From positions 1 to 56,870 of the IMG/VR virus record IMGVR_UViG_3300037470_000663: 56,870 bases of DNA. One strand, 5' to 3'. The first letter of the stretch is position 1. Each line of letters begins with the position of its first letter. Below the pieces are notes generated by a model. It did not search any database and was not told the DNA's origin. It saw only the letters and a list, made by a program, of their open reading frames with translations. Both the position numbers and the translations under genes were made by a program. This document shows, in pieces, positions 2,762 to 46,157 of this stretch. Source of the DNA: a virus (Duplodnaviria; Caudoviricetes).

Positions 2762-3115
2762 ATGGTAGACACGGCGTTTTTGTGCAGGCAGTGCGGTGGG
2801 AAAATTCAGGCAAAGAACGAGATGGCTTACAAGCATCTTCTGAACGGTAACATAACCCTCTGTGATACATGCCGCAGAGGGGGAAACGTCCGTCACTGGA
2901 CGAAGGACGTTTATCAAGAGTATCTCGCTTCCAGCCAGTGGAGAACACGGCGGGAGCGGGCGCTGAAACTGGCGGGGCATCGCTGCCAGGTATGCAGCGG
3001 GAACGGCCGTATGCATGTTCACCACAACACTTACGAGCGGTTGGGCCATGAGCTTGACCGCGATTTGCTGGTAGTGTGCGAGGCTCATCACAGAATGATT
3101 CATAGTATCAAGTGA
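2762..3115 (+). CDS. HNH endonuclease with N-terminal Zn finger
   Basis: CRQC/CDTC, then YLASSQW...CQVC...HVHHNTY...CEAHHRMIH; GGAG RBS. Confidence 0.85.
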   Translation: MVDTAFLCRQCGGKIQAKNEMAYKHLLNGNITLCDTCRRGGNVRHWTKDVYQEYLASSQWRTRRERALKLAGHRCQVCSGNGRMHVHHNTYERLGHELDRDLLVVCEAHHRMIHSIK

Positions 3116-3121
3116 GCACCT

Positions 3122-4033
3122 ATGAAAGTTAGACCTTTTTCGGGGCAAGGCGGGTACACCGTCTTCGACAACATTATCTTAGATTACATTATGCCTGAAT
3201 TGTCGCCTGCGGCGTGGAAGGTTCTTTGCTACATCATTCGCAAAACAATAGGGTGGCACCAGGAGAGTGATAAGTTGAGCTACAGCAGGATCATGGCGGG
3301 GACGGGCATCAAATCACGTCCGACAATCAGTAAGGTTTTGGGCGAGCTTGAGGAGCACGGCTTTGTTGTTGTCACTCGCCCCGAAACGGGTGACTTCGAG
3401 ACCGCCAATAGCTATCAGCTCAACACGTCGCTGGAGCTTGAGATTGATGGGGGTAGTATAAAAAATACACTACCCCCTAGTGCAGAAAATATACCGGGGG
3501 GTAGTTTAGAAAATGAACACAATAAAATAAACCATATAAACAAAATACCCCCCCGCGTGCGCATGATTAACGCACTTGTTGACGCTACAGGCATGAGCGG
3601 AGTTTTGAATTACGCGGTTCTCTCTGAGCTGGCTGATGAGCTAATAGGCGCCAGCTACAGCCATGAGGATGTTGTTGTTGCCTTCTGTAGCCCAAACGGA
3701 TATTGGCGCAAGGCCGATTGGCGCGGGCAGCGTGGCGACTTTCCAGACCCGAAACACATCCGTGAATGTATTCGCCGTGGCCTGGAGTGGGAGAGACGGA
3801 AGTCGGCACCGTCACCGGAAACAAAATTGGACCGAGGTGACACGGCCGTATGGGGAACCGCCCTCACCCACGCCCGCCGGGGCGATTCCAACTTCGCAGA
3901 CCCGGCTCTAAAAGCGGCCGTACGTGTCTTTGGGTGGCCCAAACTCCAGGCCATAAAACCAGGGGATGAAAACTTTTACCGTAAGGAATTTTTAAGGATA
4001 TACAATGACCAACTCGAACCAGCTTCCACCTAA
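3122..4033 (+). CDS. Phage replication initiator (lambda O-like, N-terminal wHTH)
   Basis: LSPAAWKVLCYIIRKTIGW...LSYSRI..GTGIKSR.TISKVL.ELE motif; contains iterons; overlaps DnaB. Confidence 0.85.
   Translation: MKVRPFSGQGGYTVFDNIILDYIMPELSPAAWKVLCYIIRKTIGWHQESDKLSYSRIMAGTGIKSRPTISKVLGELEEHGFVVVTRPETGDFETANSYQLNTSLELEIDGGSIKNTLPPSAENIPGGSLENEHNKINHINKIPPRVRMINALVDATGMSGVLNYAVLSELADELIGASYSHEDVVVAFCSPNGYWRKADWRGQRGDFPDPKHIRECIRRGLEWERRKSAPSPETKLDRGDTAVWGTALTHARRGDSNFADPALKAAVRVFGWPKLQAIKPGDENFYRKEFLRIYNDQLEPAST
3449..3547. other. Putative replication origin (three iterons plus AT-rich tract)
   Basis: TAGTnnARAAAATnnAC at 3454, 3478 and 3502 (24-bp period), followed by AATAAAATAAACCATATAAACAAAATA inside the initiator gene. 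Confidence 0.7.
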
Positions 4034-34356: not shown

Positions 34357-35571
34357 TTAAGAAGATACGTCCAGGATATGGGCCGCACCGGCGTCCATAA
34401 TGGCGTAGCCCTCTGTTTCGGTCATCGTCAGGCTTTGGATTTGTGACTTTGTGAACCGTTCCACCTCGGCAATATCCGCACCGATTTCAAAGACTCGCTC
34501 TACTGTCACCCGCGGGTCCCAGCCAACGATCTTGTCGGCTGGCGCGTCGCTGGTCCAGCCCAGCGGCACAGGGCCAGAGAATTCCTGGTTAATTGGCGTT
34601 ACGCCGCCGATGGGCATGTTGCCAAACGAAACAATGGGGTGATTGGCTGTGCCAGCTGACAACAACATGACCTGTAAGGCGATGGCTTTGGTGGCCAGGG
34701 CCACACCCAACATGTACGGGTTTTCAAACTCCATTTGGAAAGCAAGCCACCCCTCCAAGGTCAATGTTCCGGCCGTTGCGCCGGTGTCCAGCGTGGTCAG
34801 ATCATGGCTCTCAGCGCTGGTGTTGGCGTTGCCGTCACCGTTGACCACAATGTCAATCACGGTGGCGACTTTGTCCACCTCAGCCTGGATGGCCATCATT
34901 TGGATGAAAAGCGCGATCTTGTCCATGCGCTGGCGGCGCAGGACTTCATACGATGCATCCATAGAACGCCCGTACTTATACAGATTGACCGTGCGATCTG
35001 CGGTTGTCACTTTCATCGTTGGGATTAGCGCACTTTCACCTATGCGCACCATGCGGAAATTGGACTCGTTACCCGTTTGGTCAATGTAAGCGGCGCGGTA
35101 GGTGTCGCCATCGATGGGGGTGGTCAGGCCGACTAGTGCGGCCAGAGGAATGGCCGCCTGTAACTTCTTTTGCGCCCGCAGCATATCGGCCATAGCATAC
35201 GGCCGTTCCCATCCGCCGACGGTGTAGTCGTCGCTCAGAAAAGTGGCTCGCTGTTGCGGCGTCTGGTGCGCGGCCTTGCGGTACTGGCGTGCCCACCATT
35301 CGGGCAGCAGGGCGCGTTTGGCTTCGTTTTCATAAAAGCTCTCGAAGCGGTCGGCGTAACGGCCGTAAACCGGCTGTGAGACAGTCACGATATCGGCCGC
35401 TTGCAGCAGCCGTTCGTAACTATCCAGGTCGTCATCAAAGTCGGTTTCCATCACCGTGTCGAGGTAGGCACTCAGGCTCATGCCGCGTTTGTACGCCTCG
35501 CGGTACAGCTCCGGCCCGGCCTCGCCGAACCGTTCAAATAGTTCGTCGGGACGTAATTTTGTTTCGCTCAT
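34357..35571 (-). CDS. Major capsid protein (HK97 fold)
   Basis: IGESALIP...V.LYKYGR....SYEVLRR; 404 aa; follows protease and decoration genes. Confidence 0.88.
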   Translation of the reverse strand: MSETKLRPDELFERFGEAGPELYREAYKRGMSLSAYLDTVMETDFDDDLDSYERLLQAADIVTVSQPVYGRYADRFESFYENEAKRALLPEWWARQYRKAAHQTPQQRATFLSDDYTVGGWERPYAMADMLRAQKKLQAAIPLAALVGLTTPIDGDTYRAAYIDQTGNESNFRMVRIGESALIPTMKVTTADRTVNLYKYGRSMDASYEVLRRQRMDKIALFIQMMAIQAEVDKVATVIDIVVNGDGNANTSAESHDLTTLDTGATAGTLTLEGWLAFQMEFENPYMLGVALATKAIALQVMLLSAGTANHPIVSFGNMPIGGVTPINQEFSGPVPLGWTSDAPADKIVGWDPRVTVERVFEIGADIAEVERFTKSQIQSLTMTETEGYAIMDAGAAHILDVSS

Positions 35572-36164: not shown

Positions 36165-37550
36165 TTACGCCTTGTGGGCAGCGGCGGGCAGTTCTACACC
36201 ACGGCCGTCTTTGTGTGCCCCGTTGGGCTGCTCTTGATTCTCGTCTTCATCGGTGGTCTGGCGGCCGCCGGGGAACTTGGCCTTACCAATCGTTCGCCAG
36301 CTTTCAGTCATGGCTTTAATTTCCGCCAGTGAAGACCGTTCCAGGATGCCTTTATAGGTTTCCTGCTGGAAATCGTTACCAAGTGCCCGCGTGCCTTCCA
36401 GCAACGCCGCCTCAACGAGGTCGGCGCGGTAGGTGCGGCCGTCGTCGGCCAGCGGCCGTAGGCGCTCCAGGTCGGTGGCAATCTTCGCCACACGGGTGGC
36501 CAGGTCATCGCCTTCCACGGATTCGGGCACGGCCGTGCGGGCCGATTCCAGCTCGCTGCGGGCATCACTGCCGCGCTTGATGAGCTGACGAATGCCACCG
36601 GCAACGGGTGTGCTGTCGTCAATACCAGCCTCGGTCAGGGCCGCCCGCGCCTCTTTCACAATCTCTTCGTAATTCATAGACCTATCTCCTATGGGGGAAT
36701 TGGGGGCGGGAATTTCTTTGCCCCGACCGGCCGTGTTCTCGTTGGTGGATCTGACCGGCTTGTCTTCTAAATCCGACACGGGGAATGATTTCCGCGTCGG
36801 TAACTGAACTTTGTAACGCAGCTCGATGGCAGCTACGGTTTCGGGCTCTAGCTCGCCGTGGCGGGCCAGCTCCTCAGCTTTGCGCATCATGGCTCCCGGC
36901 GTTGCCCCGTCGTAGACCACGCTGTGCTCCGCCAGATGAGCGCCATCAATGCTGACGGTACAAACCACAATGCGGTCGCCCTGTTCGCCCAAGGCGTACT
37001 CGATGCCGGCAAAATGGGGGCATTCGTTGTAGCGACGGTAATTGCCGCCGCAGATGTCACAGGTCCAACGGCCGCCATAAAAACCCACACTGATGTCGCG
37101 GGCCAGTTTGGCGCGGGCGGCGCGAATGAAATCATCGGTGCTGGCATAAGTGAGGCCGCCACCGAATTGAATGCCGGGGATGGTGTAGGTACCCAGCACC
37201 GCCCGCTTGACCACGTCGTCGGGGGTGAAGGCGAGCTGGGCGTTGGGGTTGTCCAGCTTGTACTGGGGGCGCTGGCTGTTGTCGATTTCAAAACGGCCAT
37301 CGAAGGTACGGCCGTATCCCAGATTCATGCTGTTGTGGCTGTCGAGGAACTGCACGCCCTCGGCCGCTTCAGCGGCGAAATTCCGCAGCGTGCTCTCCAG
37401 CATGTGAGTGAAGTAAAAATCCAGGTTGTTGTTGCTGGATACGGTTTCAAAGATGAAGGGGTCTGGCAGGTCATCGGGCAGGCCAGCGACCTGCCGCAGG
37501 TCTACGGCCGTGATGCGGGCGCGAATGGTATGCTCGGCTTGTTGGGTCAT
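36165..37550 (-). CDS. Prohead protease-scaffold fusion
   Basis: LDSH, DISVGF, CDICG...CPH, EHSVVYDGA.PGA; coiled-coil C-terminus. Confidence 0.82.
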   Translation of the reverse strand: MTQQAEHTIRARITAVDLRQVAGLPDDLPDPFIFETVSSNNNLDFYFTHMLESTLRNFAAEAAEGVQFLDSHNSMNLGYGRTFDGRFEIDNSQRPQYKLDNPNAQLAFTPDDVVKRAVLGTYTIPGIQFGGGLTYASTDDFIRAARAKLARDISVGFYGGRWTCDICGGNYRRYNECPHFAGIEYALGEQGDRIVVCTVSIDGAHLAEHSVVYDGATPGAMMRKAEELARHGELEPETVAAIELRYKVQLPTRKSFPVSDLEDKPVRSTNENTAGRGKEIPAPNSPIGDRSMNYEEIVKEARAALTEAGIDDSTPVAGGIRQLIKRGSDARSELESARTAVPESVEGDDLATRVAKIATDLERLRPLADDGRTYRADLVEAALLEGTRALGNDFQQETYKGILERSSLAEIKAMTESWRTIGKAKFPGGRQTTDEDENQEQPNGAHKDGRGVELPAAAHKA

Positions 37551-37572
37551 ATTTCCCTCTTGGCAAATGACC

Positions 37573-37617
37573 AAAAAAAACGGCGCAAGAAACCTTTGAA
37601 GGTTTTCTTACGCCGTT
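37573..37617 (-). terminator. Intrinsic terminator-like hairpin just upstream of the protease RBS
   Basis: CGGCG..AGAAAACCT/AGGTTTCTT..CGCCG stem followed by T8 on the - strand. Confidence 0.7.
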
Positions 37618-37689: not shown

Positions 37690-37718
37690 ATATTACATCA
37701 ATCGAACATCCGTGTCAA
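37690..37718 (-). promoter_or_regulatory. Sigma70-like promoter facing the head genes
   Basis: TTGACA-17-TAATAT on the - strand. Confidence 0.55.
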
Positions 37719-37779
37719 TTACCGGGTTCGAGTTTGGCTCACTCCCCGCGCCCGTTTTTGTCACATTTTTACCTGGTGC

Positions 37780-38356
37780 CCTCGCCACATCCAACGATGC
37801 GGACGTCTAACTTGACACCATCGCCAGAATCGGCGATACTTACCGGCGCCCATCGTCACAAACAACGATGAGATCCCATCGTCACAAATGACGAGCATCG
37901 AGCATCGTCAAAACCGGCGATAGGATCCGGAAAAGGAAACAATCATGATAGAACTCGGCAGATACAACGGCGGAAAAGGCAACGTATTCCGGCAGATCAT
38001 CAATGAGATGCCGCCCCACAAAACGTATGTTGAAGCGTTTGTTGGTGGCGGCTCCGTGGCCCTCAACAAACTTCCGGCTCAACGCAACATCCTGATAGAC
38101 AAAGACCCGGAAGTGATCGAGACTTGGCTGAGCCACCTCGCCACAAATGACGCTGCTGCAGCAACGTCACAAATGACGATGCGATATCCCCTCGTCACAA
38201 ACGGCGATAACCTCGACGACCTCGCCAATTTCAACGATGCTGCACCATCATCAAATCTAACGATGCCAGCTGTCACCGCCATTCCCAGCGATAGCACCCG
38301 GGCAACTATCGTCAAAAATGACGATGCCTCCGGGCACATCGTCACCTTCGACGATG
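37780..38356. repeat. Array of 13 imperfect 20-bp palindromes (consensus CMTCGYCA-N4-YRRCGATR)
   Basis: Starts at 37780, 37819, 37851, 37877, 37903 (upstream of gene) and 38136, 38162, 38190, 38220, 38246, 38274, 38307, 38337 (inside gene). Confidence 0.93.
37812..37840 (+). promoter_or_regulatory. Sigma70 promoter of the methyltransferase, overlapped by repeat 2
   Basis: TTGACA (37812)-17-GATACT (37835). Confidence 0.7.
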
Positions 38357-38850
38357 ACACCAGGTACGAACTTTACTGCGCCGATGCCCTGCAACTCCTG
38401 CCCCATTTGGGCCTGGGTCACGATGCCCTGGTCTATGCCGACCCGCCTTACCTTCTCAGCACCCGAACTGAGAAACGGCCGTTGTATCGCTACGAAATGG
38501 GCGAAGAGTGGGAACATGAGATGATGATAGGTGCTTTTGACAAGCTGCCCTGCAAGATTATGATTTCCGGCTACTGGTCCGGCCTCTACGCTGGTTTGAT
38601 GAAAGACGGTTGGCGCAATTTTGATTACACCGCCTACGACCGGCAGAACCGGCCCCGGCAAGAATACGTTTGGTGCAACTTCCCCGAACCTTCCCGCCTG
38701 CATGATTACACATTCATTGGTGACAACTTCCGCGAACGCGAACGGATAAAAAGAAAAGCGGCCCGTTGGGTGGGCCGCTTTGAAAATCTGCCAGCATTAG
38801 AACGCCGGGCGATCCTTGAGCAGCTAGACGCTGCTGGGGTGCTAGATTAG
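37945..38850 (+). CDS. Dam/D12-class N6-adenine DNA methyltransferase with repeat-encoded insertion
   Basis: YNGGKG, YVEAFVGGGSV (motif I), YADPPY (motif IV), MISGY, QEYVWCNF; opposite strand to its neighbours. Confidence 0.9.
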   Translation: MIELGRYNGGKGNVFRQIINEMPPHKTYVEAFVGGGSVALNKLPAQRNILIDKDPEVIETWLSHLATNDAAAATSQMTMRYPLVTNGDNLDDLANFNDAAPSSNLTMPAVTAIPSDSTRATIVKNDDASGHIVTFDDDTRYELYCADALQLLPHLGLGHDALVYADPPYLLSTRTEKRPLYRYEMGEEWEHEMMIGAFDKLPCKIMISGYWSGLYAGLMKDGWRNFDYTAYDRQNRPRQEYVWCNFPEPSRLHDYTFIGDNFRERERIKRKAARWVGRFENLPALERRAILEQLDAAGVLD

Positions 38851-40934: not shown

Positions 40935-41894
40935 TCATCCCGCCCAAACCTCCTCTGGTAATTCCCACCCGGCTACGTCCGGCAAATAATAACAGTTGCA
41001 ATTAGGGTGCTGCGGCAACAGATCGAACCAGACACGGCCGTTGCTCGCCCGCATCCGCTGCCCCTCGTACGGTGCACAGATGGGGCAGGGGGCACCGGCC
41101 GTCTTGTAAATCATGTACTCGACATCGTTGCGGGCGTAGGTGGTGCCCAGCCCCTTGCGGCTCCAGCTCACCACCTCGGCGGCGGCGATGTTGCCCGTCC
41201 GCTGCAAAACACGGCCGCTGATGTAAATATTCAGCAGCCCATTCAGCGCCCCTTCGGTCAAGCCGTCAGCCCGGCCGCCCGCAATCTGCCGCGCCAGGTC
41301 ATTGGCCGTGGTGTTGGTCAGGCTGACGCGGGCAAAGGGATCGGTGTAGGAAACGGCCGTTTCCGCAATCGTTTCCAGCAGCGCCTCATCCCGCAGATTA
41401 AACGCCAGGCCGCTGCCCGCCCCGGCTGAGCTTGCCGAAGTCAGCAGCTCCAGCGCCAGCGTGCCGCCGACGTTGAACGCCTGGGTAAAATGCCGCTCCA
41501 GCGTGTCGGCCAGGCTGCCGGTTCGGGCGATACCGGCGGGGGTGGTGAACTCGCCCCGGATCCACTCGGCCAGCGCGTCACGGTCCAGCTCGGGCACGGC
41601 CGTCAGGCCATCGCGCAATGGCCAGCGGTAGGTGTCGTAGATGGGCACGCGCAGGGCGTTGGTGAAAGCGGATTCAGCGCGCAGCTCTTGGATGGTCTGT
41701 CCACCGTCGCCCAGTTGGCGCGTTCCGGCCAGGGGTAGGGCGGCCGTGAGGGAGTGGTGCAGCTGTTCCAGGTGGGTGAAGGGGAAGATACGGCCGTTTG
41801 TGCCCACAAACAGTTCCTTGCTGCCTGAGTGCATTCGGACCATCCTCCCGGCGTTGACTGGGCCGCCGCTTTTGCGGCCGTTTTGGTCAGTCAT
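40935..41894 (-). CDS. Mu gpF/SPP1 gp7-like minor head protein
   Basis: CPICAPYEG...LPQHPNCNC; downstream of portal. Confidence 0.85.
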   Translation of the reverse strand: MTDQNGRKSGGPVNAGRMVRMHSGSKELFVGTNGRIFPFTHLEQLHHSLTAALPLAGTRQLGDGGQTIQELRAESAFTNALRVPIYDTYRWPLRDGLTAVPELDRDALAEWIRGEFTTPAGIARTGSLADTLERHFTQAFNVGGTLALELLTSASSAGAGSGLAFNLRDEALLETIAETAVSYTDPFARVSLTNTTANDLARQIAGGRADGLTEGALNGLLNIYISGRVLQRTGNIAAAEVVSWSRKGLGTTYARNDVEYMIYKTAGAPCPICAPYEGQRMRASNGRVWFDLLPQHPNCNCYYLPDVAGWELPEEVWAG

Positions 41895-42145: not shown

Positions 42146-42401
42146 TAATCAGCTCCTTCAGTCGCGCTTTGATTTCCTCATCACTCAGCGCCGGGCACGG
42201 CCGCGCCCTCACGTTTTCTTTTGGCGGGTGGGTAACTATCCAAATTACTTCGTAAAGTGCCCGGCGCATGGCGGCGTGTTCTATTTGCTGCCTGTACTCG
42301 CTATCGAATCCACTGACGTGCTGGGACAGGTCAATATCATCCACTTTTATTGCCCCAGACATCCCCTCTAAATCTATTACCACGCATCTCGCCACACTCA
42401 T
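42138..42401 (-). CDS. Hypothetical protein
   Basis: ATGA coupling to portal. Confidence 0.55.
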   Translation of the reverse strand: MSVARCVVIDLEGMSGAIKVDDIDLSQHVSGFDSEYRQQIEHAAMRRALYEVIWIVTHPPKENVRARPCPALSDEEIKARLKELIND

Positions 42402-44098
42402 CTCTTACCATTCCCATTCGATCCCATCTCGCCAACGGCCGCCCGCATGTCGCGCAGCACATCGCCATCATAAAGCTCGTCCAGGTGCATCTCCGTTTCC
42501 ATCAATCGTCGATTGACACCATCCAGATGGCGCAAAAAGGCGTCGCCAGTAACGGCCGTTTCCACCGCCCGCCGCGCCTCCCGGATTTCTTTTAATAAAA
42601 CACCGCGCTCGTTGCCATCACCGTCATCTTGCACAATATCGGCCGCGCCCGTCAGCTCTAGCACTCGCGGCGCTGGCTGGTCGGCATCGTGACCGGTGAT
42701 CTCTTGTGAGGCCGCGTCCTGGCTAATCCATCCCGCATTGTATTTGGTGCGAGCGTTGGCAATCAGCATCTGCTCAGTCATCGCATCGCGCAGCATCTCG
42801 GCCGCCCGCAGCTCGGCGAATCTAAATTTGACCGTCGCCTGAATCCCCTGAGCTTGCAGCGCCAGGCCCAGCAGATGCTCCAACATCGTCTCGCATAGGT
42901 GTTGGACGCTCTTGATACCGGCCGCCTGGATCTCCCACTGTCGATTCGAGCTCTGCTCCGTGCCGGAACTGTCGATGCCCAACAGCAGCGGCATTTGTTT
43001 CATCGCCCGCGCCGCCATACGCTCCAGTTTGGTGATGAGTGTGTCTATCATTCCCAATGCCTGCGCCCCCAGCGCGCCGACGGTGTCATTGACCTTGATC
43101 GTGTTGGCGTGCACGTAGGCGTCATCTGGCTCCAGGCTGGCGTACACTCTGTCGATTTCGCTGATAACGGCCGTCACCCAATCCTCGAATCCCTCCGTGC
43201 CCGGCTGGGCGTCATCGGGGGCCATGGCTGCCAGCGCCTCAAAATCCACTTCCAGATCAAGGCGTGGCCAACCCTGTTGAGCGACCACCCGCCGTAGGTC
43301 ATGGAGGATGCCGATTAAAAACAGACTTGTGTGCAGGGCAGGGGAGACGATGGCCCGGCCGTAGGGTTTGCCAGGGGCGGGGTCGATGGGCACATAGCGT
43401 ACCGTCGGCCGGTCTAGCGGCGTCCACTGCGATCCCTGGTACTGACCCAGCTGCCAGACCGTGCCTAGCTGGGCGTGTTTGATTCTGGCAAAGCGGGCGG
43501 AGTAGGGGTCGGGCGTGGCGATGTTGAGGGGGAGACGGCCGTTTTCGTCCAATACCAGCTCAGCCATAAACGCCCCGCGCAGGAACGCGCCGGCGAACAG
43601 GGTATTGATGACCGTGTCGAACGGCACCGCCAGCGGTTCGGCGTAAATGCCGGGTAGGGCGGTCAGGAATTGTTTCAGCACGGCCGTGGCCCGCTCGTCC
43701 GGCTCGTCGCGGCCGGGACGGACGGCCGTCACTTCCCAGCCCGGATTGCACAGCCGCAGCCAGTTCCACAGCCCGGCGCTGACCTCTGGCGATAAATCTA
43801 CCAGCAGCTCCAGCAGGCGCGCCGGTGACATATGGCTGAGGGTTTTGCTGTCGAGGTTCAGCGTGCGCCAGGCGGTATCTGCGTCAGGCGGTGCCTCGAT
43901 GGTGGTGGTGACGGCCTGGAAATCGTACAGGCGGTCTACGGAAATGCGGCCGCCAGCCATGGCCCGGAGTGCGGCCGTGTTGGGGGTTTGTTTACGGCCG
44001 TTTGCGGCCGTGTCAGTGCTGGGGTGTGTGCGTACGGCCGTTTGCGGCGGCCGGGGTTGCAGCCAGGCTCCTTGTCGAATGGTGTCAAATAGTCCCAT
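42398..44098 (-). CDS. Portal protein
   Basis: 566 aa directly after the large terminase; PYGR, P.LLG, GWIS..A motifs. Confidence 0.85.
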   Translation of the reverse strand: MGLFDTIRQGAWLQPRPPQTAVRTHPSTDTAANGRKQTPNTAALRAMAGGRISVDRLYDFQAVTTTIEAPPDADTAWRTLNLDSKTLSHMSPARLLELLVDLSPEVSAGLWNWLRLCNPGWEVTAVRPGRDEPDERATAVLKQFLTALPGIYAEPLAVPFDTVINTLFAGAFLRGAFMAELVLDENGRLPLNIATPDPYSARFARIKHAQLGTVWQLGQYQGSQWTPLDRPTVRYVPIDPAPGKPYGRAIVSPALHTSLFLIGILHDLRRVVAQQGWPRLDLEVDFEALAAMAPDDAQPGTEGFEDWVTAVISEIDRVYASLEPDDAYVHANTIKVNDTVGALGAQALGMIDTLITKLERMAARAMKQMPLLLGIDSSGTEQSSNRQWEIQAAGIKSVQHLCETMLEHLLGLALQAQGIQATVKFRFAELRAAEMLRDAMTEQMLIANARTKYNAGWISQDAASQEITGHDADQPAPRVLELTGAADIVQDDGDGNERGVLLKEIREARRAVETAVTGDAFLRHLDGVNRRLMETEMHLDELYDGDVLRDMRAAVGEMGSNGNGKR

Positions 44099-44109
44099 GA
44101 TTACCTTCC

Positions 44110-45504
44110 TTATCCTCTGGGCTGCCAGCCCTTTGTCTTGCCCTGGGCAAATGTGCCCACCTTGCGGGTTTCGGTCAGTTCGCCAAATCCGCCGCTACAA
44201 CAATCGCGCACATCCCACAGGCCATCCGGTGTATTGTGCATGATAGATAAAAAACGATCATTCCAATCGGCACGCAGCAGCCAGACGTTGCGCGCCTTCA
44301 CCTGCGAGGCAAACGGCCGGAAACGGTCCAGCTTGTCTCCCGTCGGCCGCACCCCGGCGCAGTTCAGCCCGGCCATCTTCTTGGCCAGCGATGCCGAGGT
44401 GCGCTTGCCGCTGCTACCGCCCTCCTCCTCCCAGCGCTGTTTGATTGCACGGCCGTCCTGTCGAGCAATAGATACGGCGTGGTCATCCACCTGTGCCGGG
44501 CCGATCCAATCTTCAGTCATGTCAATTATACCGTACCCACCGCTGGCATCCTTGCATATCTTGACTGAAGCCGTGGCCGCGCCGAGCCTGACCTTTTTCT
44601 CGCTGGCGGCAAAGTCCCAGAAGCGTACGACCTCAGTGATTTGCGGTAGCTGGTCAATGACATAAAACCAGCTGCGGTCGATGACGTTGCCCGCTTGCGG
44701 CCGTATCTTATGGTTGCCGCGCAGCAGCCGCTCCTGCTCTACCAGGTTCAGGCCGTGCAGCTTGGCCAGGTAGGTGGGATCGGTTTGCAGGAGGATTTGA
44801 TTATCCTCCACAAATGAGGGGATGAAGGTAAAAGAGAGTGGGGGGATGCCGGGCCAGGCGGCCAGGGCCTCTTCTTTACTGTCGTACCAGTGCAGTTTGT
44901 CGCGCACGTTGACGAACCAGCGGATAATGCCCGCTTTCGTCAGGTCAGGGTACTCGCCATTTTCATCCAGATACCAGTCGACAAATTCATGCAGCCAGCC
45001 GCCAACGGGATCGTCAGACGGCACGGGGTTGTAGCTGAGGCGGATGTAGGGTGCGATGCCGCAGGTGGAGCGCGAACGGCTGAACATGTAAAAAATCTGT
45101 GACCGGGTAAACGTTTCACCCTGGTCGTAGAGCTGCAAGGGGATCTGCGCGCCCAGCCAGTTTTCTTTGCTCTTTTCGTGCTGCATGTGGGAGAAGCTGA
45201 TGGTATTGCCGTATGGCGGGAACTTGAAGTCCAGGTTAGGCGACTGCCGGTTTTTGGCTCCGAGTGGCGTGTACAGCGAAACGGCCGTATCCCATGGCCC
45301 GCCCTCTGTGGTGATTTGGGGCGATTCGCGCCGGAAAAACACCGCGCCGAAACCTTTGGTGGTCATGATATGGCGCAGCGGCTCCATGAGCAGGGCGTAG
45401 GTTTTACCGCCGCCAGCTGCGCCGCCGAAAAACACGACGTCGGCCGATGAGGAATGGAACGCCTCCTGCGGGCCGAGCTGCGGGCAGATGTCGGTGCGTA
45501 TCAT
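44110..45504 (-). CDS. terL: Terminase large subunit
   Basis: Walker A GGAAGGGKT, SRSRS, NP, RFWDFA nuclease motif, EEEGGSSGK, DVRD. Confidence 0.93.
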   Translation of the reverse strand: MIRTDICPQLGPQEAFHSSSADVVFFGGAAGGGKTYALLMEPLRHIMTTKGFGAVFFRRESPQITTEGGPWDTAVSLYTPLGAKNRQSPNLDFKFPPYGNTISFSHMQHEKSKENWLGAQIPLQLYDQGETFTRSQIFYMFSRSRSTCGIAPYIRLSYNPVPSDDPVGGWLHEFVDWYLDENGEYPDLTKAGIIRWFVNVRDKLHWYDSKEEALAAWPGIPPLSFTFIPSFVEDNQILLQTDPTYLAKLHGLNLVEQERLLRGNHKIRPQAGNVIDRSWFYVIDQLPQITEVVRFWDFAASEKKVRLGAATASVKICKDASGGYGIIDMTEDWIGPAQVDDHAVSIARQDGRAIKQRWEEEGGSSGKRTSASLAKKMAGLNCAGVRPTGDKLDRFRPFASQVKARNVWLLRADWNDRFLSIMHNTPDGLWDVRDCCSGGFGELTETRKVGTFAQGKTKGWQPRG

Positions 45505-46157
45505 TCGTCAGCCTCGCCGTTGTCGCGGCCGTTGTCGGGCATGTAGATGTTGGGCACAATACGCTCGCCACCACTGGTTAGGTCGGTTTTGTCGGTAAAG
45601 AGGCTGCGGAAACGGCCGACGTGGACCAGGGCGCTTTGCGAATCATGCAGCTCGACCTCAATCCATTCTGTTGTCGTCTCCTCGTCATCCTTATTGACAA
45701 AGGTAGTTCGCTTTTGCTTGAACTTCTTCAGCAGGTGCATCTTGCCTTCACGCTCGGCTTTGGCCAGATCGAGCGCCGGATCACGGCCGTCGCCAATATC
45801 CAGAAAATCACCCAGCGAGCCGCGCGCCTGGTCTGAAAGGCGGGCCACGACCTCGGCCGCGCTCATCTCCTGGGCGTGGAAATATTCGTCAACGGCCGCC
45901 TGAATTTTTTCTTTATGCCGCCACTGCCAGCCCAGCTTGCGCGCATTGTTGCCGGTGTAGCCGGGATTGGCACGTAGGTAGGCGTCCTTCAGGCTATCGC
46001 CCATGAGGAAGGCCGCGACAAATCGCCGGTCTTTGGCGGTGAGCGTTGAAACGACGGATAGCGCGCCTTCGACGTCTGCGCGGCGCTGCTGTAAACGCGC
46101 TTCAGCTGCTGCGTCGCGTTCGGTCTCTTCTGTTGTGGCTTCGGTTTTGTCTATCAT
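45501..46157 (-). CDS. terS: Terminase small subunit
   Basis: LT.KDRRFV...AY..A.Y...A..LG; ELHD.Q.AL; DLTSGGE; coupled to terL. Confidence 0.88.
   Translation of the reverse strand: MIDKTEATTEETERDAAAEARLQQRRADVEGALSVVSTLTAKDRRFVAAFLMGDSLKDAYLRANPGYTGNNARKLGWQWRHKEKIQAAVDEYFHAQEMSAAEVVARLSDQARGSLGDFLDIGDGRDPALDLAKAEREGKMHLLKKFKQKRTTFVNKDDEETTTEWIEVELHDSQSALVHVGRFRSLFTDKTDLTSGGERIVPNIYMPDNGRDNGEADE

Follow-up and report, generated by a model that had tools for sequence, protein, structure and literature searches.

A methylase gene in the head module of a tailed virus is overlaid by an array of palindromic dyads, through which its product probably represses its own promoter. The genome is the complete IMG/VR virus record IMGVR_UViG_3300037470_000663, whose 56,870 bases are the window analyzed here, and the gene encodes a Dam-related DNA methylase with a basic C-terminal tail. 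The dyad is repeated over the promoter and inside the coding sequence, it recurs at set positions around related genes, its bases co-vary with residues of the tail, and array and gene together form a cassette with definable limits. From these observations we infer that a methylase dimer binds the dyads and represses transcription, perhaps with looping, and that the arrays of this mobile, self-contained cassette are expanded operators tolerated in a disordered loop of the enzyme.

A dyad array over promoter and coding sequence

The dyad has the consensus (C)ATCGYCA-N4-TGRCGAT(G). Reading the sequence and counting the pattern confirmed the 13 copies that had been noticed in a sequence-only reading of this DNA, all within 37780-38356, with five upstream of the methylase open reading frame (ORF) and eight inside it (Table 1). 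With up to two mismatches allowed, the window contains 23 strand-matches to ATCGTCA-N6-ACGAT; the expected number is 2.47, and no more than 8 were seen in any of 100 shuffles. The earlier statement that the motif occurs nowhere else covers the 56.9-kb contig only, in which 18 matches lie within 37781-38355 and the other five are scattered elsewhere. The units are only ~65–80% alike among themselves. A promoter scan supported the earlier observation that one dyad fills the spacer of a promoter.

Spacings between the in-gene units are 26, 28, 30, 26, 29, 32 and 30 nt. They sum to 201 nt, or 67 codons, as first reported, although the degenerate unit 11 is placed one base later here. The eight units encode roughly residues 65–137, and translation bore out that the repeat is read in two frames of one open ORF: LATNDA, LVTNGD, LANFND, IVKNDD and IVTFDD belong to one frame, and TSQMTM and SSNLTM to the other. 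Reading in two frames would follow from the in-gene dyads being kept as DNA and not as protein.

A tail-bearing methylase family and its dyads

The protein matched Pfam PF02086 (44.3 bits, cut-off 22; E = 2.4e-11) and phrog_56 (E = 1.2e-32). Motif I (FVGGG, residues 32–36) precedes DPPY (166–169), the order found in the D12 class, and G34, D166, P168 and Y169 are invariant in 120 aligned sequences. Among solved structures the protein is closest to DpnM, E. coli Dam and T4 Dam; a profile search of the PDB gave E = 2.2e-11 for DpnM, and Foldseek gave E = 7.5e-08 with a probability of 1.00 for E. coli Dam. With the NCBIfam dam family TIGR00571 the score was 40.7 bits against a cut-off of 114.85, and the match was limited to residues 6–61. 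The segment between motif I and DPPY that is missing or variable in the family is exactly where the recognition domain of DpnM aligns, which confirms that the array sits at the position of the Dam target-recognition domain, as had been claimed. In an AlphaFold2 model with a mean predicted local distance difference test (pLDDT) of 84, residues 70–114 are disordered (pLDDT <50) and residues 121–134 form strands.

The C-terminal tail was modeled as a two-helix module (Table 1). A homodimer model scored 0.51, compared with 0.04 for the best of three controls; in a rough calibration, 20 of 30 proteins whose solved structures are pairs attained the mark set for this score, as did 1 of 23 with single-chain structures. 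Dimer runs agreed in at least 69% of contacts, with a partner pLDDT of at least 70. The modeled interface consists of residues 268–300 and 248–259 of both copies and leaves residues 262–267 outside. On the strength of these models the tail is a dimerization module and a likely reading head, with FRERERIKRK proposed as the part that reads DNA. A basic region and helix-loop-helix pairing via a four-helix bundle is the topology of eukaryotic basic helix-loop-helix (bHLH) factors, and by analogy the methylase tail module appears to resemble it.

A database search for homologues returned 2149 hits of 225–351 residues, with PF02086 in nearly all of those listed. Alignments showed the C-terminal motif LHDYxYLGxNFRERERIKRKxxRWVxRLxxMPxLERxAIL to be conserved through the family; the extra basic C-terminal helix seen earlier in the window protein is thus present and family-wide. 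The segment from about residue 60 to the DPPY block is hypervariable in length and often holds peptides such as AAIATNGD or TSxMTMG, two readings of one DNA dyad in different frames. Of 160 loci that we fetched, tblastn assigned 92 to a set with the tail and 51 to a control set of ordinary Dam-like loci without it. The gap between two conserved blocks measured 1–271 nt in the tail loci and ~300–380 nt in the Dam-like loci. In minimal members of ~225 residues it is 1–60 nt at the recognition-domain position, and because it can shrink to 1 nt, these members hold nothing there.

Hosts of the family belong to the Chloroflexota, Acidobacteriota, Planctomycetota and Alpha-, Beta- and Gammaproteobacteria. 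Cultured carriers are the P2-like Salmonella phages SEN4 and SEN5 and Klebsiella phage 3LV2017, all with ACGGTCA-type dyads upstream. The ACGGTCA-N4-TGACCGT dyads were located at 2300-2470 in the SEN5 locus (L215) and at 2400-2495 and 3070-3200 in that of 3LV2017 (L216), and in these P2-like phages the family member, with a YNDRYRIKRK tail, sits after a replication gene. Compared with iterons, which are direct repeats beside or within an initiator gene that come with an A/T-rich unwinding region, the units are orientation-neutral palindromes, and such a position after a replication gene is seen for the P2-like cassette. In 3LV2017 the annotated gene ends at 191 residues, with the tail codons in a different frame farther downstream. 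Three copies in an 11.3-Mb Chloroflexia genome (G001:C1, 2750172-2751002, 4515145-4515975 and 6919296-6920123) each have a second tandem tail match (profile positions 207–256) in open frames of 349–473 residues, and the tail module appears to be duplicated in them. M.EcoGII was considered as a family member and rejected, as it is described as beta-class in the accessible text of PMC7544214. A literature search, with supplements that possibly hold methylase lists outside its coverage, found no description of the tail or the operator of this family.

We scored canonical dyads at a threshold of at least 11 of the 14 arm bases across the 92 tail loci. Their density was 5.87 per kb at -100 to 0 from the start codon, a ~20-fold enrichment just upstream of the gene, 2.3 per kb at +100 to +300, and 3.5 per kb at +700 to +800, just past the stop; distant bins mostly held 0.1–0.6 per kb, and the 51 tail-less Dam loci at most 0.4 per kb in any bin. 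At least one dyad lies inside the gene or within 250 bp of it in 57 of the 92 loci (34 upstream, 36 inside, 25 downstream). The largest arrays outside the window have six units upstream (L081) or six downstream (L103). Variant dyads of the same geometry also occur, namely ATAGNCA..CTAT, AACGGTA..TACCGAT and ACGGTCA..TGACCGT. When a looser 6-base core covering both main types was counted inside the gene or within 300 bp of it, 73 of 120 loci had at least two dyads and 35 had at least four; core density fell from 2.02 per kb near the gene to 0.58 in the flanks, and the Dam controls had 0.41.

Positions recur as well. Among 87 full ORFs, canonical dyads stand at the promoter in 26, in the linker in 23 and at the stop codon in 15; 14 ORFs have them at two or more of these positions and 7 at all three. 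Promoter and linker dyads are 187–253 bp apart (12 loci). A TTGACA-17-GATNNT promoter is present in 33 of the 92 loci, and in 17 of those 33 the spacer 18-mer scores at least 10 of 14; the recurring layout is cTTGACA-nc-ATCGYCAnnnnTGRCGAT-(ACT/GCT/GAT/AAT). At many promoter-bearing loci the ATG stands just 6 nt downstream of the -10 element, so their mRNA would be leaderless. Minimal members of this kind are L091, L111, L116, L119-L121, L130, L132, L149, L151, L152 and L154, in several of which the dyad is degenerate save for the outer ATC..GAT. The proposal to look for co-occurring arrays in homologues with the RERIKRK tail thus met with dyads enriched near the gene and varying in copy number between relatives. 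What had been presented as special to the window gene is a family trait, an expansion of three recurring positions (promoter, linker and stop codon), of which those at the promoter and in the linker have multiplied in the window.

Dyad centers are A/T-rich, and adjacent pairs are more alike in direct orientation in 31 cases and in inverted orientation in 23. Such A/T-rich, orientation-neutral centers fit a symmetric dimer on duplex DNA. No gene neighbor is conserved in the family, as the largest neighboring gene family occurs in 7 of the 92 loci, and no transposase, integrase, cas or initiator gene is conserved beside the cassette in these loci. With no neighbor family in more than 7 loci, the methylase is the dyad's only constant companion. 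A dispersed host repeat of the repetitive extragenic palindrome (REP) or bacterial interspersed mosaic element (BIME) kind, which goes with a RAYT transposase and has tens to hundreds of copies across a genome, was not found in five host genomes of 4.3–11.3 Mb, which gave 3 to 54 exact-pattern strand matches (both strands counted). In the richest of them, the Chloroflexia genome G001, which is also the genome of L135, A/T-centered sites cluster at three methylase copies and at ~8 solo arrays. These solo arrays keep the usual family flanks (GCTGGCCA, CTGCAG) and sit in paralogous repeated elements. One of them precedes a DUF1993 gene; besides DUF1993, Pfam searches of the genes adjoining solo arrays returned a group II intron reverse transcriptase and nothing more, and no pattern emerged.

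Two further observations concern peptides encoded by dyad-like DNA. The peptide NIGIDxD, at about +150, is encoded as ATCGGCATCGAYNNCGAT, a near-dyad, in L004, L006, L082, L095, L102, L103 and L140 and is absent from the window; it may be a by-product of codons or a further operator. A codon-choice test on IAxNGD found the motif in only 6 of 87 loci, with p-values of ~0.3.

The type of operator follows the first residues of the tail. When 7 TAG-type loci were compared with 27 TCG-type loci, the best-separating alignment columns were 263, 266 and 264, and the first tail residues are FRERER at TCG loci and FTDRQR at TAG loci. At the 67 loci with R263, TCG-N10-CGA occurs at 1.75 per kb near the gene and 0.68 in the flanks, and TAG-N10-CTA at 0.10 and 0.056; at the 12 loci with T263 the corresponding densities are 0.39 and 0.34 for TCG-N10-CGA and 2.46 and 0.10 for TAG-N10-CTA. 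On a tree built without columns 263, 264 and 266, T263 needs three to five origins, and the operator switched along with the residue in three T263 lineages (L002 versus L082, L122 versus L135, and the HYH clade versus L117/L141). An out-of-sample set of viral loci, fetched solely by back-translated TDRQRIKRK (37 loci, 34 of them non-duplicate), gave TAG-N10-CTA at 2.09 per kb near the gene versus 0.12 in the flanks, and TCG-N10-CGA at 0.24 versus 0.34. Within this set an R262 subclade carries GTAG..CTAC, and F262 goes with ATAG..CTAT. Pairing of Arg with G, and of Thr or Gln with A:T, is the usual chemistry of direct readout. Judged from these alignments, the methylase most likely recognizes its own dyad via the first tail residues, 262–266. 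The earlier suggestion that the enzyme binds its own array thus gains comparative support from the family dyad, the lack of a conserved neighbor and the co-variation of the tail, and binding itself is predicted.

Spacers, cassette limits and genomic setting

The spacers between dyads are symmetric more often than chance allows. A self-complementary 4-mer occupies the exact center of 33 of 58 even-length spacers, compared with a mean of 4.1 in random windows (maximum 12 in 2000 sets) and of 5.8 in shuffled spacers (maximum 15 in 2000); registers shifted by 1–3 nt gave only 2–9. Even lengths outnumber odd ones, 58 to 19. The pattern was replicated in an independent TAG-type set, in which 10 of 20 spacers were symmetric (shuffle mean 1.86, maximum 8). 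The central words vary (GGCC, CGCG, TGCA, TCGA, GATC, ATAT and AGCT) and often extend to 6 bp, as TGGCCA, CTGCAG, GGATCC or CAGCTG. Examples in the window are at 38156-38161 (gctgcagc), 38182-38189 (gcgatatccc) and 38266-38274 (gccagctgtc), and symmetric spacers are also found in L081, L103, L135, L185, L191 and L201. Inverted duplication was rejected as the origin, given that neighboring dyads are no more alike inverted than direct (23 versus 31). A flank consensus is at best a partial cause: the flanks of 10-nt spacers vary and the GGCC and CGCG centers persist. Spacer symmetry is a statistically solid pattern, separate from the reading of the dyads as operators.

The limits of the cassette emerged from a metagenome relative, L217, that is 61% identical. 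In a tblastx comparison the match was confined to the cassette (Table 1) and the flanks were unrelated. The left limit is near the first dyad, and the right limit is the stop codon, not a dyad. The cassette, at ~37771-38850, thus moves as one unit, a self-contained phage accessory or ‘moron’. L217 has seven upstream and four internal units with the same promoter layout, and database relatives of 261–280 residues differ by whole units in alignment; judging from these sequences, dyad copy number is quick to change between close relatives. A metagenome scan for close relatives found two loci only. An empty site was sought via relatives of the 469-residue head gene at 36165-37574, and none of the 22 pattern matches was confirmed.

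As stated earlier, the methylase gene is antisense to its neighbors, which are head-module genes on the minus strand (Table 1); no nuclease gene is among them. A promoter-like TTGACA-17-TAATAT on the minus strand (37690-37718) faces the 469-residue head gene, away from the methylase promoter. As unit 1 stands between both promoters, the array might also affect late-gene transcription. Within the codons of the methylase tail, a terminator-like minus-strand hairpin (IKRKAARWVGRF, 38755-38781) has a 10-bp stem with 7 G-C pairs and a T-run. The same hairpin DNA is present in L217, and it could terminate the upstream minus-strand head operon.

Table 1. Positions in the window of the methylase cassette, its parts and neighboring genes.
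Feature	Position	Strand	Description	Basis
Whole cassette	37771..38850	+	Operator array, promoter, 5' leader and methylase gene	tblastx against L217
Dyad unit 1	37780-37799		CCTCGCCACATCCAACGATG; between divergent promoter-like sites	
Sigma-70-type promoter	37812..37840	+	TTGACA-17-GATACT	Promoter scan, 10/12 matches
Dyad unit 2	37819-37838		Fills promoter spacer; its CGAT overlaps -10	
Dyad units 3-5	37851-37922		Starts 37851, 37877, 37903; in 5' leader; 6 nt separate the 20-mers	
Ribosome-binding-like site and start codon	37933..37947	+	AAGGA and ATG	Read from sequence; ORF list
Methylase gene	37945..38850	+	301 aa; D12/Dam-class N6-adenine; without Dam-type recognition domain	
Dyad units 6-13	38136-38356		Starts 38136, 38162, 38190, 38220, 38246, 38275, 38307, 38337; inside ORF	
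C-terminal two-helix module	38728..38835	+	Codons 262-297; helices 262-280 and 284-296	pLDDT >90
Major head protein	34357-35571	-		
Minor head protein	40935-41894	-	Weak match	
Portal	42398-44098	-		
Large terminase	44110-45504	-		
Small terminase	45501-46157	-		

Proposed self-repression, its alternatives and its precedents

We propose that a Dam-related enzyme lost its target-recognition domain and gained a C-terminal basic-helix/loop/helix module. Two proteins would pair via their tail helices in a four-helix bundle, and the first turn of each long helix (F262-R263-E264-R265-E266) would read the outer bases of half of an 18-bp ATCGYCA-N4-TGRCGAT site. Because the promoter dyad covers the spacer and the first half of the -10 element, a dimer bound there would shut out RNA polymerase, giving negative autoregulation. 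Linker dyads, ~190–250 bp downstream, and dyads past the stop codon would add cooperative or looped repression or act as roadblocks. In the window the promoter and linker sites would have been multiplied to 5 and 8 copies, the latter tolerated because they sit in a disordered, dispensable loop that replaces the recognition domain. By analogy with broad-specificity enzymes, a methylase that has lost this domain may methylate broadly and so need tight control.

Several observations weigh against this account. The canonical dyad is missing in 35 of the 92 tail loci, several of which have variant dyads, and 19 of the 120 loci have no core dyad near the gene. In genome G001, ~8 solo dyad pairs or triplets (L167-L174, L177) have no methylase adjoining, so dyads can occur, and perhaps function, independently of the gene. 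One T263 lineage, L123/L156, gives no clear operator type (TCG 2, TAG 1), and an independent-pairs test yielded 2 starred pairs (4 on all branches), too few for significance. The center-to-center spacing of 26–32 bp in the window keeps no single helical phase, and simple repression does not predict spacers that are palindromic at their exact centers. The dimer score is the model's own confidence on a custom alignment, and its calibration counts are only rough. Lastly, the co-variation would look alike if the tail were a recognition domain and the dyad its methylation target.

That alternative, in which the tail is a target-recognition element, the dyad or an adjoining adenine is the substrate and the promoter is set by its methylation state, can coexist with self-repression, and we think it rather unlikely. 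It would account for what holds the DNA once the Dam recognition domain is lost, and for the co-variation of tail residues with dyad bases. Adenine is, moreover, the commonest base 3 nt outside the dyad edge (80 of 204 symmetrized flanks), and in the promoter these adenine-rich positions are the last -35 base and the partner of the last -10 base. However, no adenine of the dyad is constant, A1 being G in the GTAG clade and A17 being G in the ACGGTCA dyads of P2-like phages; a dimeric target of 18 bp would be of no use against restriction enzymes; and a fixed geometry with a variable center is typical of a bound dimer. The array might instead serve the methylase as a platform in cis. In one form, which we hold to be quite improbable, tail-anchored dimers would be aligned along the array so that neighboring catalytic domains meet over each symmetric spacer and the encoding DNA is methylated first; the methylase, probably of broad specificity, would be tethered to the DNA that encodes it and would also mark the adenines flanking the promoter dyad. 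If true, the array would be a loading site of the parS kind that serves an epigenetic enzyme, and a prokaryotic virus would possess a bHLH-like reading head. In a related form, which we rate as very improbable, the array is a loading or nucleation site at which the tail anchors a low-specificity methylase, so that the phage genome is marked over that of the host. Arrays do exceed the need of one promoter, both in the window and in L081 and L103, the enzyme has no Dam recognition domain, the spacer centers are symmetric between neighboring dimers, and the related phage methylases Hia5 and Hin1523 show no clear specificity, according to the accessible text of PMC3299994. Many members, however, have a single dyad exactly in the promoter, which argues for regulation as the basic role.

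The dyad could also be the operator of another phage or host regulator, with the methylase as mere regulated cargo, and the solo arrays beside other genes in G001 would agree with this. We give it only a slight chance: the methylase is the constant companion of the dyad, a single host factor is unlikely given a host range that spans phyla, and the operator type follows the methylase's own residues. Two remaining accounts are extremely improbable in our judgment. According to one, the repeats act as RNA or single-strand hairpins, whether as processed RNAs, translational operators or hairpin-dependent ends of a mobile element. Every unit could fold into a 7-bp stem, the folding energy of the 110-nt leader is -32.8 kcal/mol (z = -3.96), and the mobile cassette begins close to the first dyad; yet the best-conserved copy, that of the promoter spacer, precedes the transcript, the loops show no strand preference, the cassette does not end in a dyad, no gene for mobility or cas function is conserved nearby, and an Rfam scan gave 4 matches, all under gathering scores. 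Nor does the array have the form of a CRISPR array, which has repeats of 23–50 bp, unique spacers of similar length and cas genes: its units are 18–20 bp, its spacers are 6–21 bp, and no cas family is common to more than 7 of the 92 tail-bearing loci. The other account is that gain or loss of units switches the frame and makes the methylase phase-variable, as the sequence-only reading had suggested. Most unit lengths (26, 28, 29 and 32 nt) are not multiples of three and copy number differs between relatives, but all 87 full-length family ORFs recovered stay open through the linker, units this dissimilar are poor substrates for slippage, and the lone split copy, that of 3LV2017, has its break near where the tail begins and not in the linker. 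Frame switching was therefore not borne out.

The closest known concept to a self-repressing methylase is the M.SsoII/M.Ecl18kI type of C5 methylase, which also acts as a transcription factor via a separate DNA-binding region and whose methylation is inhibited by DNA bearing the regulatory site, as described in the accessible texts of PMC3978073 and PMC6100179. As in that type, a methylase domain and a separate DNA-binding region, here predicted, would share one polypeptide, regulation would be at its own locus, and an inverted-repeat site lies in the promoter region of the gene (in the window and in 17 of 33 promoter-bearing relatives). The M.SsoII type, however, is a C5 enzyme with an N-terminal helix-turn-helix region of ~70 residues in a restriction-modification operon, whereas the window enzyme is an orphan D12 N6-adenine methylase in a phage head module, the part of it proposed to read DNA is a two-helix dimer module at the C terminus, and its sites form arrays that are partly intragenic. 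With E. coli Dam, T4 Dam and DpnM the family shares the catalytic fold and motifs (FxGxG, DPPY), but it lacks their recognition domain and has added the RERIKRK tail.

Operators inside coding sequence are also familiar. lacO2, within lacZ, and galOI, within galE, are second operators ~100–400 bp downstream that are used for looping, and the family likewise combines a promoter dyad with an in-gene dyad downstream. In contrast to lacO2 and galOI, the proposed repressor is an enzyme from the same gene, and arrays of up to 8 sites add a disordered peptide loop. In restriction-modification systems, C proteins acting at C-boxes, which are palindromic promoter operators, autoregulate the modification genes; a C protein is a separate small helix-turn-helix regulator, and no such gene is conserved beside the cassette. 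Hia5, Hin1523 and Nma1821, DPPY enzymes that are related to Dam and borne by prophages, have a recognition region that diverges and methylate most adenines (PMC3299994); by analogy, they would be an earlier example of phage methylases with broad specificity and a need for tight control. Unlike the window family, they retain ~90 residues at the position of the recognition domain, and the accessible text of PMC3299994 describes no tail or operator for them.

Since methylases that repress their own promoters and operators within coding sequence are both known, the earlier label of a new system was overstated. The family differs from these precedents in being an orphan phage N6-adenine enzyme with a C-terminal dimer module, in the loss of the recognition domain, in its intragenic arrays and in its spread across phyla. 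Phage orphan methylases are usually annotated and then ignored, and relatives of broad specificity can modify most adenines. The family would contribute a control circuit that is compact and apparently portable, with promoter, operator and regulator-enzyme in ~1.1 kb, and that operates in at least six phyla. It would also add a natural recognition code, in which operator base 3 is C:G with R263 and A:T with T263, and base 1 is G with R262, and which could supply orthogonal repressor-operator pairs. It flags a class of Dam relatives without a target-recognition domain, as numerous as the database hits reported above, and would be a case of selection at the level of DNA writing a peptide loop into an enzyme.

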